A stretch of DNA of 64,000 bases. It comes from a virus. Taxonomy: Duplodnaviria > Caudoviricetes. Position numbers and translations under genes: made by a program. Numbering within the stretch: position 1 is the stretch's first letter; each line of letters begins with the position of its first letter. The notes beneath the pieces were generated by a model that saw nothing but the letters and a program-made list of their open reading frames with translations, did no database searches and had not been told where the DNA came from. The stretch covers positions 160,001 through 224,000 of the IMG/VR virus record IMGVR_UViG_2974799246_000001, one strand, 5' to 3'. Positions 16,322-58,877 of the stretch are shown piece after piece.

Positions 16322-16427
16322 ATTGTCTTCCAGAGCTGTATGATTAATTGTGATATAAAATTAGTGTTTGATCAGACAATTCTGAAACAAAAATGGGCAG
16401 CACAAAGGCCACCCATTTTTCACTTAT

Positions 16428-17711
16428 TTACTTCTTCTTCTTTTTCTTTTCTTTCTTCGGCTTGTCGTCTTCGTCGTCTTCGCCCATCTTGACTGCCAGC
16501 TTACCTTCATAGATATCAGCCATGAGAGTAAGCACTTTGGACTCCAACATAATGTCTGCTGGTACGGACGTTGAGTTGAATGCTACTTCGGATTCAGCCA
16601 ATGCAGATTGCAGATACACCATACTAACCAGATTGACTTTGATGTTGTCTTTCTTGGTCATGTTCATGAACATCTTGAGGCCAGCCGACTGCCACTTATT
16701 CGTTTCGGCGTAATGGCCTAACACGCCGTGAATAATCCAACGAGCTTTCGCAACGATTGCACGTGGGTTGTTCGATTCACGCAGGAACTGAATAACACCA
16801 ATCAGGTCCATCGCCAGATACGCACCGATCATCTGGACAGCTTTCGCTTCCATATCGATCTCTGGGTCTGCTGCTGCGAGTTCGGCAACGAGGTTCTTAT
16901 CGAAGTCCTCACCACCTTTCACGGACGCATAGATATTCTGCAACATCGTGATTGCGCCACGCATCTGACCACCAGCATAATCCGCTACCTGATGCAGTGC
17001 TGCTTCTGCTTTCTCACGCGCCTTGTCTTTCTTCGGCATGATCTCAAGTGCCGTACCGATTTCAATCAGTCGCTTGTGAATCACATCAGTTGGAATAGGT
17101 CTGATAGGCAGTTGCGTCATGCGACTGATCATCGTGCCCTTCATCTTCTCCGGGTTGGTAGTTACGAAGATGAATACAACGTGCGCTGGAGGCTGCTCTG
17201 CAATTTTGAGCAACTTGGATTCGGCTGCGCTTGACATGAGGTGCGATTCGTCGAAGATGAATACGCGACGTTTGAACATCGGACTCAGCGGTGCGCTGTC
17301 CACGATCTTCTGGCTGCCTTCAACTTTACCAGCATCGCCACCCATATCGAACTCTTGCTCATCGGGGTGTGCGCCACGGTCGTGCATTTCACACGAACGA
17401 CATTTGCCACAGGCCGAGAACGTGTCGCAGTTGATATACTTCGCAACCAGACGCGCAAACGTTGTTTTACCTGAACCCAAATGACCAGTAATGATCATTG
17501 TCGATGGAATCGTTTTCGACTTCTGCCAACCCTTCATGATCTTAACGATGTGGTCTTGACCAACATAGTCTTCGATACGTTTCGGTCTAAACTGATCAGC
17601 AAAGTTAATCGTTGTCAGTTCAACAGACTCGGAAGAATCGCCTTTCTTTTTCTTTGGCGTATCACCACCAAAGGAACGCGACTTCTTCTTTTTCTTTTCT
17701 TCTTTAGCCAT
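16428..17711 (-). CDS. dnaX: Clamp-loader AAA+ subunit, DNA Pol III gamma/tau-like
   Basis: FRPK...DYVGQ, GHLGSGKTT, C..ACGKCRSC zinc module, DESH, FVTT and GQMR. Confidence 0.9.
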   Translation of the reverse strand: MAKEEKKKKKSRSFGGDTPKKKKGDSSESVELTTINFADQFRPKRIEDYVGQDHIVKIMKGWQKSKTIPSTMIITGHLGSGKTTFARLVAKYINCDTFSACGKCRSCEMHDRGAHPDEQEFDMGGDAGKVEGSQKIVDSAPLSPMFKRRVFIFDESHLMSSAAESKLLKIAEQPPAHVVFIFVTTNPEKMKGTMISRMTQLPIRPIPTDVIHKRLIEIGTALEIMPKKDKAREKAEAALHQVADYAGGQMRGAITMLQNIYASVKGGEDFDKNLVAELAAADPEIDMEAKAVQMIGAYLAMDLIGVIQFLRESNNPRAIVAKARWIIHGVLGHYAETNKWQSAGLKMFMNMTKKDNIKVNLVSMVYLQSALAESEVAFNSTSVPADIMLESKVLTLMADIYEGKLAVKMGEDDEDDKPKKEKKKKKK

Positions 17712-17852
17712 TTTCAATTCGCCCTTAGTTCTAATGCGTTACACCAGTTATTTACAGATTTTAGACAAAAAGAAAGGACCACATCCAAAACGGAGGGTCC
17801 TTACGTGTTACAATGGTTTGAATGATAACGCATCGGCAGTGGGCGCTGTCGA

Positions 17853-18050
17853 TTAGGCAAAGCTCATCTCCCAACGCGGTACAACGCGGAAGAATTGCTT
17901 AAAGTGGGACGGTGGGTTCTGCTTGATGGACTCAAGTTTCTTTTCCACAACGTCATAATCTTTTATGCCACTCTCAACGCAGTGAGTGGTGAATGTACCG
18001 TCAGCCTCAATCAAATCGGCGACAACACGGTAGCTTGGTTTTCTCAGCAT
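17853..18050 (-). CDS. Hypothetical protein
   Basis: AGGAG RBS; CTGTAAACA upstream. Confidence 0.6.
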   Translation of the reverse strand: MLRKPSYRVVADLIEADGTFTTHCVESGIKDYDVVEKKLESIKQNPPSHFKQFFRVVPRWEMSFA

Positions 18051-18140
18051 CTAGTCTCCTGAAAACGAAATTCTCATTGCTCTGAATTATGTTTACAGAT
18101 TACTGGAGTAGTCACAAAAGAATAAAGTAAGACAAATCTT

Positions 18141-18480
18141 AAACTCCAATAGGTACTCGCTGGAATTCCTATTGGAGTTCACCCTCAACCGATGACGGTC
18201 GGCAGAAGGTGTTCTCCCCGTGCTTTTCGATTGCACCAGCACGGTAGCGCTTGCGGTCTTACGCTCTTGTCATGCAGCGGGCCGGCAGGGATGGTAGCAT
18301 TTCCCGCCGCAAAGAGCAGCCGCTTTCGGCCATTAGCGATAACGCGGTGTTACGCTTAACGGCCCGACTCTGTGGCCGAGTCTGTACAAAAAAGAGTTCG
18401 GCCTATTCCCCAATTCGGCAAAAAGAAATAAGCCGAACTAAACAGTCAACGCACACTCCATATGCGCTGTTTTGTACTGT
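18141..18480 (-). ncRNA. Candidate structured non-coding RNA or cis element
   Basis: Gene-free, GC-rich stretch with nested inverted repeats, directly downstream of CTAATTT (18484-18490, - strand). Confidence 0.4.
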
Positions 18481-18517
18481 AACAAATTAGAAACATCCTG
18501 CAATATTCAGACAATTC

Positions 18518-19105
18518 TTAGTTCAACATCGGAACGAGATTTTGCAAGAAATGTTTGCGATCAAACGAACTGATTCGGTGCGGATGATCGACGTGCATGT
18601 TCCATCCTTTGTTGAACAGCAGCACGTTCTTCGGCAGGACAACGTTAATGCCAACGCGAGTGAACGAATCACGAACGGCAGTCACTGGATTGTCGTCAAC
18701 CAGAATCCAAGTACCTTCACCGTACTTCTCGTTCAGGTAAGCAATCTTATCAGGATGCTGGCGTGAGTCCAGACAGTCGATGTGGTCAAACAACGACAGG
18801 TGCTTCTCCAACACCTTGCGTGTGTAGCGTTCACCTTTGGCGTGATAGCCACGATGCGTACAAATACCGACACTGAAACCGTCGCGCACCAGCATTGCAA
18901 CCGTTTGGATGAAGTAGTCACGCATGTTAGCTTCGAGCATGAAGCGACCGTCAGCCAGCATCTCCACGAAAGGTTCGTGACCATTCTCTGGCGTAATGTA
19001 CGTGTCGGTACCTGGGTAGATTCCCCAGTTCATCAGATAGCACAGCATGAAGTTATGCGTATCGAATGCCGTGTCGTCCATGTCGAAGAAAATATATTTA
19101 ATCAT
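18518..19105 (-). CDS. HAD-superfamily hydrolase (5'(3')-nucleotidase-like)
   Basis: FFDMDDT motif I, THRG, K and LVDDN motif IV; start reassigned to 19105. Confidence 0.8.
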   Translation of the reverse strand: MIKYIFFDMDDTAFDTHNFMLCYLMNWGIYPGTDTYITPENGHEPFVEMLADGRFMLEANMRDYFIQTVAMLVRDGFSVGICTHRGYHAKGERYTRKVLEKHLSLFDHIDCLDSRQHPDKIAYLNEKYGEGTWILVDDNPVTAVRDSFTRVGINVVLPKNVLLFNKGWNMHVDHPHRISSFDRKHFLQNLVPMLN

Positions 19106-58351: not shown

Positions 58352-58877
58352 ATCACTCGGCGTATACATGACTTACATTCTGCGACACAAGCCGCAGGAT
58401 ATCGGAATCGCAATGGACACCCAGGGTTGGGTGTCTGTTCTGGACTTCTTGCAGAAAGCGAAGTATGTGAAACAGGTCACTCTCGAAATGCTGATTGCCG
58501 AAGTTGAGGCGGACGAGAAAGGCCGTTTCGAGTTCAACTCTAACCGTTCCAAGATTCGTTGTGTGCAGGGACATTCGGTTGAGAACGTTATTCTGCATCT
58601 CGAACCGTTCACCGACCTTGCGCCTCTATATCACGGTACGGCTGATAAGAACGTGGCGTCAATCATGCACGAAGGTATCACGAAGCGGAAACGCAAACAC
58701 GTCCACATCAGCCGTGAGATCGAAACAGCCGAGAACGTTGGTCGTCGTCACGGTGCACCTGTTGTGTTTCAGATTGATACACAGGCAATGATCACTCACG
58801 GCTATAAGTTTTACCTCGCCGAGAATGGAGTCATCCTGACCGACCACGTACCGTCCAGATATATAAAGTTGGTGTGA
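58344..58877 (+). CDS. kptA: RNA 2'-phosphotransferase Tpt1/KptA
   Basis: LRH.P, GW, KGRF, IRCVQGHS, LYHGT, RKHVH.S and NGV.L...VP. Confidence 0.92.
   Translation: MAKSLGVYMTYILRHKPQDIGIAMDTQGWVSVLDFLQKAKYVKQVTLEMLIAEVEADEKGRFEFNSNRSKIRCVQGHSVENVILHLEPFTDLAPLYHGTADKNVASIMHEGITKRKRKHVHISREIETAENVGRRHGAPVVFQIDTQAMITHGYKFYLAENGVILTDHVPSRYIKLV

Follow-up and report, generated by a model that had tools for sequence, protein, structure and literature searches.

The intergenic gap at positions 18051-18517 (467 nt), the largest without an annotated gene in the window (the stretch of 64,000 nt of phage DNA analysed here), holds, as far as sequence comparison can tell, a gene of its own for a structured non-coding RNA some 345 nt long. 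The minus strand encodes it, from roughly 18478 to 18130, with both ends estimated, and the RNA represents a new family among the orphan structured phage ncRNAs, absent from Rfam 15. An earlier note on this DNA had proposed an undescribed structured phage ncRNA at this place, and the proposal is borne out by a structure conserved through compensatory changes in seven genus-level lineages, with no Rfam family and no conserved ORF to account for it. As an overall statement of its role, we lean, by a small measure, towards a stand-alone gene for a late-made RNA that would work in trans and, more tentatively, would be a protein scaffold or decoy.

Genomic setting and distribution of the RNA

The window belongs to an Erwinia jumbo phage of the Alexandravirus type: a 1.2-kb query (17700-18900) is 99.4% identical to pEa_SNUABM_28/16/18, which are Alexandravirus jumbo phages with genomes of about 265 kb. 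The RNA locus (18130-18478, minus strand) is situated within a block of replication and nucleotide-metabolism genes, and all the genes surrounding it lie on the minus strand as well. Upstream of the RNA, at higher window coordinates, is a HAD/PNK-phosphatase-like gene of 195 aa (18518-19105, minus strand), whose product carries the HAD-type motif DMDDT (DxDxT) and matches PHROG 16292 (8e-25) and PHROG 415, 'polynucleotide kinase' (E = 2e-13), with no match in Pfam; these similarities would be compatible with a polynucleotide 3'-phosphatase or a nucleotidase. Downstream of the RNA, a gene of 65 aa (17853-18050, minus strand), for which we found no recognisable fold and no lead in Pfam, PHROG or Atlas, is followed by the clamp loader gene. 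The RNA is single-copy, with no paralogue elsewhere in the phage genome.

A gap of 467-488 nt was present at the equivalent position in 44 phage records, 20 of which were aligned together with the window to give 21 sequences from Alexandravirus, Sasquatchvirus (Y3) and Snuvirus. A wider search, which was anchored on the clamp loader and then continued with nhmmer and R1, a covariance model built for the 3' domain, located the RNA in the same syntenic slot in seven genus-level lineages, namely six named genera and the Yersinia phage fHe-Yen9-02 (Yen9-02). Beyond the three aligned genera, the members are Yoloswagvirus, Rivsvirus (pEa_SNUABM_5), Yen9-02, Salmondvirus JA29 and a few metagenomic jumbo-phage contigs. 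In every member the RNA directly follows the HAD/PNK-phosphatase-like gene; JA29 has a shorter form of about 230 nt, from which the 5' domain is missing, and there the RNA is present though the 65-aa gene is missing.

PaBG and Lu11, searched as whole genomes, have no HAD-like gene, no gap and no R1 match (E of 0.04 or worse), and no such RNA was found at the locus of a distant HAD homologue in another phage. Motif scans filtered with R1 over IMG/VR, the JGI metagenomes and 185,579 prokaryote species genomes (one per species) recovered only the same phage clade, no member being found among the motif-matching stretches of the prokaryote genomes; these scans demand exact GGGGAG/ACTCCAA/TTGGAGT, so that divergent members could escape. 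Judged by these searches, the RNA family is new and confined to one clade of enterobacterial jumbo phages. In three unrelated low-GC IMG/VR phage contigs (L072:4565-4687, L075:2413-2535 and L076:3208-3330) we observed two successive hairpins built on ACUCCAA...UUGGAGU arms, and the weak R1 matches of these AT-rich contigs (19 bits) are probably convergent or due to chance.

An Rfam search, which the earlier note had suggested as a check, returned no family. Specifically, none of the 4227 models of Rfam 15, which include tmRNA, RNase P, 6S, group I/II introns, GOLLD, ROOL, pRNA, CsrB/RsmB and riboswitches, matched the 64-kb window at the gathering threshold, and at E up to 10 the region and seven relatives gave scores of at most 21 bits, at chance level and with none recurring at the RNA. 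A literature search found no description of the RNA family.

Folding and architecture of the RNA

Read from the minus strand, the gap RNA folds with -175.8 kcal/mol (z = -6.7 against dinucleotide shuffles), compared to -140.4 kcal/mol (z = -3.0) for the plus strand. On the 21 aligned sequences, RNAalifold predicted 88 pairs, 23 of which show compensatory changes. A model of 14 helices, including a pseudoknot, was assembled from concordant per-sequence folds and scored on 23 sequences. In this model 92.2% of the cells are paired, and double-sided changes occur in 31 of the 92 pairs, against 17.3±2.2 in column shuffles (0/500), while slid controls, in which the partners were shifted by 1-3 columns, gave only 4-10 pairs with such a change. 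For the 3' domain, which was aligned over the seven lineages, double-sided changes were found in 18 of 32 pairs, against 9.1±1.6 after shuffling (0/500). In addition, 181 cells are G-U and 23 are A-C on the minus-strand reading, an excess that points to the minus strand as the one encoding the RNA. Identity between the window and Y3 is 75.5% in the gap, and 73.1% and 75.8% in the flanking coding genes. P1 and P4 do not covary within the three aligned genera, and most other helices are held by compensatory evolution. The earlier note had named a lack of structure conservation in relatives as a ground for dismissing the element; the structure is conserved in them, with compensatory changes beyond those seen in shuffles.

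According to the model, the RNA begins with a 5' three-way junction, continues through three hairpins to an H-type pseudoknot and ends in two 3' hairpins. The inverted repeats listed in the earlier note are all real and lie where it had placed them, and most of them prove to be RNA helices with compensatory changes; what that listing overlooked were P2, P5, P6, P8, P10/P11 and stem 1 of the pseudoknot.

Following the minus strand from 5' to 3', to which all positions below refer, the 5' domain (18384-18477) is a three-way junction of P1, P2 and P3, with covariation in the last two. P1 (18470-18477 with 18384-18391), made by the repeat GTACAAAA/TTTTGTAC, closes the junction; it is invariant in three genera and, by visual reading rather than a tool count, pairs through other sequences in Yoloswag and SNUABM_5. 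P2 (18447-18469) exposes a conserved loop, A-N-GGAGU, and shows double-sided change in three of its seven pairs. P3 (18396-18438), corresponding to the repeat AGTTCGGC/GCCGAACT, is a long hairpin with double-sided change in 6/14 pairs, and its 17-bp stem (-22.4 kcal/mol) with U6 directly after it has the signature of an intrinsic terminator, which is a prediction. The U-run measures U5-12 across the lineages having the 5' domain and 6-12 among the aligned relatives. At 18385-18390 and the homologous sites, the 6-12 length range of this U/T run in close relatives resembles homopolymer slippage tolerating length change.

P4 (18366-18382; the repeat GACTC/GAGTC) and P5 (18328-18364) are hairpins on which the per-sequence MFE folds agree across lineages. 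P5 carries the invariant loop GUAACACCGCGU, and in Y3 a C-G pair of P5b is replaced by U-A. Phage pEp_SNUABM_52 (S52) has, within the conserved loop of P5, a 10-nt tandem duplication, GTAACACCGC (alignment columns 186-205), which is apparently tolerated. The long hairpin P6-P7-P8 (18253-18323) has GCUACC in its apical loop and covaries in P7, formed by GCTCTT/AAGAGC (double-sided change in 3/5 pairs), and in P8 (5/8 pairs). P6, as read by eye, is GCGG/CCGC in the window, GCGAGG/CCUCGC in Snuvirus and GGCGAG/CUCGCC in JA29. A boxA-like UGCUCUUU was considered as a nut site and discarded, since it belongs to the covarying P7. Among the unpaired motifs of the family, the best conserved is the asymmetric internal loop GUAAGA (18257-18262), which occurs as GUAAGAC in six of the seven lineages and as GUAAGCG in Yen9-02. 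A 13-mer, AGCGUAA[C/G]ACCGC, is present in two near-identical copies, one in the P5 loop and one in the P6/P7 internal loop, and the S52 duplication adds a further copy of the loop type; the shorter ACCG, by our own count, is present four times in 341 nt, a modest excess over the roughly 1.3 copies expected from length alone.

The H-type pseudoknot (18218-18250) consists of stem S1 (18247-18250 with 18233-18236) and stem S2 (18239-18244 with 18218-18223), with the strands in the order S1-5', S2-5', S1-3', S2-3' and covariation in both stems (double-sided change in 2/4 pairs of S1 and 4-5/6 pairs of S2). The repeat CCGTGCT/AGCACGG (18218-18224 and 18238-18244) is actually S2, and the segment once taken for the loop of a CCGUGC/GCACGG hairpin is S1. 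S2 occurs in eight different sequences, e.g. CCGUGC/GCACGG, CCGCAC/GUGCGG, CCCUC/GAGGG, CCCGC/GCGGG and CCCAC/GUGGG. Loop 1 is 1-2 nt long and loop 3 is A-rich (AAUCGAAA). In an unbiased pseudoknot search, 10 of 11 lineages gave this topology, scoring no lower than the best shuffle. The P5 loop was also considered, by eye, for a kissing contact with the presumed hairpin loop; this was rejected, as a U-to-C change in the latter would break the pairing against the invariant P5 loop.

Immediately 3' of the pseudoknot, the linker GGGGAGAA (18212-18219) shares the last two G of S2; its GGGGAG is kept in all lineages but Y3 (GGGGGAU). It is followed by P10, which encloses the P11 hairpin (18180-18211), a block with double-sided change in 5/12 pairs over the 23 sequences and, in the seven-lineage alignment of the 3' domain, in 4/7 pairs of P10 and 3/4 of P11. 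The P11 loop CCGUCA, within the invariant GACCGUCAUC, does not vary in the three genera and is CCGACA in JA29 and the contig mg74. The terminal hairpin P12 (18142-18179, or 18137-18179 with the tail; -23.0 kcal/mol) has 12-14 bp and contains the 12-bp repeat AACTCCAATAGG/CCTATTGGAGTT (18142-18153 and 18168-18179). Its lower seven pairs (ACUCCAA/UUGGAGU) are identical in 18/18 sequences, and the upper pairs covary, G-U pairs included. The tail 3' of P12 is the U-rich UUUAAGA, and the RNA 3' end is probably near 18125-18137. A canonical U-tract after P12 is partial in the window and missing in Yoloswag, SNUABM_5, Yen9-02 and JA29.

The 5' strand of P12 has alternative partners. In Yen9-02, JA29 and mg74, the linker and the P12 3' strand share about 7-11 nt (GGAGUAUGCC occurs twice in Yen9-02, GGAGUUU twice in JA29), and the linker pairs with the P12 5' strand over 10-11 contiguous bp, against 12-18 within P12. 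As the linker and the 3' strand are complementary to the same 5' strand, the two hairpins are mutually exclusive. In Alexandravirus, Sasquatchvirus, Snuvirus, Yoloswagvirus and Rivsvirus, this second pairing amounts to just 4 bp, GGAG/CUCC; in the lineage of the window, the GGAGU loop of P2 offers a further pairing potential of 5-7 bp with the ACUCC strand, again as read by eye and not by a tool count. The model is therefore compatible with a conformational switch at the ACUCC strand which would be strong in the distant members and weak in the phage of the window, and a constraint from multiple partners would explain the invariant base of P12 amid freely covarying helices.

Transcription signals around the RNA gene

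The earlier note had read CTAATTT at 18484-18490 (minus strand) as a late-type promoter pointing into the element. This promoter-like motif lies 6 nt upstream of P1, is invariant in 21/21 aligned sequences and is flanked by variable bases. It also stands ahead of the RNA in JA29 and in the metagenomic contig L069, where the motif and the end of the HAD-like gene overlap; in JA29, a canonical terminator is found behind the RNA. Throughout the genome, 14 of the 23 copies of CTAATTT (61%) are placed 12-117 nt upstream of an SD followed by an ORF of at least 50 aa, whereas the 104 permuted words used as a control gave a mean of 15% and a maximum of 44%. The genes behind the motif include a tail-sheath gene and an endolysin-like gene. 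Phage-encoded sigma factors have been reported in this phage group, in the paper on PaBG (PMC7412058). All together, the enrichment at gene starts and the invariance of the motif make a phage late promoter likely, if short of proof.

The claim that the next gene has its own promoter also holds, with promoter-like elements of another kind. Specifically, the 65-aa gene is preceded by a separate sigma70-like site, GTGACT-18-CATAAT (18086-18115, minus strand), which lies outside the RNA, and by the recurrent TCTGTAAA, of which the window holds 12 copies (e.g. 18092-18099 and 17751-17758) against 2.2 expected. Of its 34 copies genome-wide, 18 are upstream of ORFs, and it is found 30-100 nt upstream of non-structural genes, including the 65-aa gene and the clamp loader. 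By its distribution, TCTGTAAA would represent a second class of promoter-like motif, distinct from that of CTAATTT.

From these motif statistics, the RNA appears to be transcribed from a late promoter, at a time different from that of its early- or middle-type neighbours, and this difference argues for a stand-alone gene. A transcript starting at CTAATTT must read through the terminator-like hairpin P3 to give the full RNA, and a form of about 95 nt is possible too. The window has just two copies of the 11-mer GAATTGTCTGA, at 16372-16382 and 18507-18517 (minus strand), both of them directly after a stop codon and a few to 16 nt upstream of CTAATTT; a role as upstream promoter element or as processing site is conceivable.

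Possible roles of the RNA and comparison with known systems

Known classes of RNA were compared with the locus and set aside. The earlier note saw no tRNA or tmRNA, in agreement with ARAGORN, which found none in the window; moreover, no conserved frame follows the pseudoknot, the stops differing between lineages (a frame reading made partly by eye). For a retron msr-msd or DGR template, PF00078 had no match in the complete 265-kb genome, control genomes being positive. A type III ToxI-like antitoxin does not fit, as 17900-18700 contains no tandem repeats and only one dispersed 13-nt repeat, nor does a CsrB/RsmB-type sponge, as GGAG is limited to the P2 loop, the linker and the P12 3' strand and no CsrB/RsmB model matched. 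A group I intron is contradicted by the lack of an Intron_gpI match and by flanking genes that are complete and separate, the 65-aa gene being absent in JA29 despite the RNA. When the complements of the conserved loops were sought genome-wide for an antisense regulator of phage genes, they gave only the own locus or chance-level matches. No phage RNase III partner was found.

Tentatively, we propose a trans-acting role late in infection, in which the RNA would be a protein scaffold or a decoy. In such a mechanism, the conserved unpaired motifs, that is the two AGCGUAA[C/G]ACCGC 13-mers and two further ACCG loops, would be displayed for a protein, the exposed GGAG elements would be carried on a rigid pseudoknotted core, and the ACUCC strand of P12 would switch between the P12 3' strand, the GGAG linker and perhaps the GGAGU loop of P2. 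Repeated unpaired motifs on a covarying framework, an own promoter and the lack of a regulated ORF argue for this reading, and the helices vary freely around unpaired motifs that do not change. Against it, P3 and its U-run would be predicted to stop the CTAATTT transcript after about 95 nt unless there is late read-through, and the fixed position behind the HAD-like gene would suit a 3'-UTR or cis role too. A more specific form, which we regard as doubtful, is a new class of late-made phage RNP or switch RNA, whose pseudoknotted core and 13-mer/ACCG loops would recruit a phage or host protein and whose activity would be gated by the ACUCC/GGAGU switch. By analogy, it could be an assembly or packaging cofactor like the phi29 pRNA, or a decoy disarming a host RNA-targeting defence; if true, it would be the first such RNA in jumbo myoviruses.

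A cis element, either the 3' UTR, terminator or processing region of the upstream operon or a leader/attenuator for the downstream replication genes, has a small yet appreciable chance of being the right explanation. Here, P3 and the U-run would stop early transcripts, and the remainder would control read-through, stability or RNase processing. The RNA is always directly behind the HAD-like gene, P3 with U5-12 resembles a textbook intrinsic terminator in every lineage having the 5' domain, the upstream gene of JA29 has no terminator of its own before the RNA, and the mutually exclusive pair of hairpins looks attenuator-like. However, a terminator or stability hairpin would have no need of another 250 nt or so that contain a covarying pseudoknot and invariant loops, the downstream genes have their own promoters, and the distant HAD homologue in another phage has no RNA behind it. 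In addition, P12 lacks a U-tract in four lineages, so that the switch is not of the terminator/antiterminator type. The same hairpin pair could be thought of as ligand-sensing and riboswitch-like, with P6-P8 and the pseudoknot as the aptamer and the ligand setting whether the GGGGAG linker or the P12 3' strand pairs with ACUCC; we hold this to be improbable. In its compactness, its short loop 1 and its A-rich loop 3, the pseudoknot resembles those typical of small-molecule aptamers, the junction nucleotides are conserved, and in Yen9-02, JA29 and mg74 a two-state pairing is present in which the competing strands track the same target. Nevertheless, no riboswitch family matched even at E up to 10, neither a regulated ORF nor a terminator follows the switch, the alternative helix has only 4 bp in the other five genera named above, and the gene context gives no metabolic pointer to a ligand.

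Still less probable is a function as DNA or as an RNA-DNA hybrid, such as an origin or primer transcript by the clamp-loader module, or a protein-binding palindrome ACTCCAA...TTGGAGT. The location inside the replication and nucleotide-metabolism block and the AT-rich stretch behind the RNA locus would suit such a function, and the palindrome at the P12 base, invariant over seven lineages, would suit a dimeric DNA-binding protein. On the other hand, the GC skew does not turn at the RNA locus, neither iterons nor tandem repeats were found, covariation in upper P12 includes G-U pairs, and the G-U bias together with the strand-asymmetric folding indicates selection on a one-strand RNA, which excludes an element acting at the DNA level only. 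That the gap encodes one or more small proteins, its structure being incidental, is very improbable indeed. The window has plus-strand ORFs of 55 and 79 aa, and in the homologous region of relatives three 'hypothetical proteins' that overlap the RNA are annotated, namely Yoloswag gp204 (55 aa, L047:1303-1467), pEaSNUABM5_00214 (41 aa, opposite strand, L048:1306-1431) and fHe-Yen9-02 106c (68 aa, L049:1803-2009). Yet strand, place and sequence of the longest ORFs change from lineage to lineage, and in S2 and S7 they are broken; the 'MTV' start common to the plus strand arises simply from the invariant loop GACCGUCAU read in reverse complement and has no SD ahead of it, and substitutions are paired across helices. 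The three annotated proteins, in differing strands and frames and mutually unrelated, are probably spurious, and their database entries would call for correction.

Among known systems, GOLLD (RF01998) and ROOL (RF03087) share with the RNA described here a phage-borne, stand-alone nature, an intricate fold of several hundred nt, pseudoknot or tertiary motifs and strong covariation. Unlike them, this RNA is limited to an enterobacterial jumbo-phage clade and is not found beside tRNA genes; it matches neither in sequence nor in structure, and its length of about 345 nt is about half their size or less. The phi29 pRNA (RF00044) is likewise phage-encoded and structured, with a three-way junction, and would suit a late role in virion assembly, but no Rfam model matched and no complementary loop pair for ring formation was found in the RNA studied here. 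The pRNA is an early promoter product and, to our knowledge, occurs only in phi29-like podoviruses.

The CsrB/RsmB and CrcZ sponges also repeat short unpaired motifs in loops, and the GGA loops described above resemble CsrA/RsmA sites; the Rsm system is used by the hosts Erwinia, Dickeya and Yersinia. However, the known sponges contain 7-22 GGA, compared to only 2-3 GGA elements and no CsrB/RsmB model match in this RNA, whose repeated motif is instead AGCGUAA[C/G]ACCGC, for which we know of no binding protein. The preQ1 and SAM-II riboswitches and the T4 gene 32 leader have in common with it a classical H-type pseudoknot, in which loop 1 measures 1-2 nt and loop 3 is A-rich, and an SD-like GGAG behind it, but here the pseudoknot is part of a far larger RNA, is followed by neither a start codon nor a regulated gene and matches no Rfam pseudoknot family. 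Finally, lambda PR'-6S/tR' and HK022 put resemble the locus in that a strong terminator-like hairpin, which late transcription has to pass, lies no more than about 95 nt behind a late promoter; in contrast to lambda, there are at least 14 CTAATTT sites and not a single late promoter, and about 250 nt of conserved structure extend past the terminator.

Large, intricately folded and strongly covarying RNAs are rare, and those classes whose roles have been solved are ribozymes, riboswitches or RNP cores. Some Erwinia, Dickeya and Yersinia phages of this kind serve in fire-blight biocontrol. The present RNA offers a tractable case, being single-copy, with a well-defined pseudoknot and a plausible late promoter, in culturable Erwinia, Dickeya and Yersinia phages, and identification of its partner would expose a new RNA-based step in jumbo-phage infection.

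The same phage encodes Tpt1, an RNA 2'-phosphotransferase (PF01885, E = 5e-45; window 58356-58844, plus strand), which hints at a phage pathway of RNA repair or modification. Together with the PNK-phosphatase-like neighbour, it makes a connection of the RNA with RNA end-repair conceivable.
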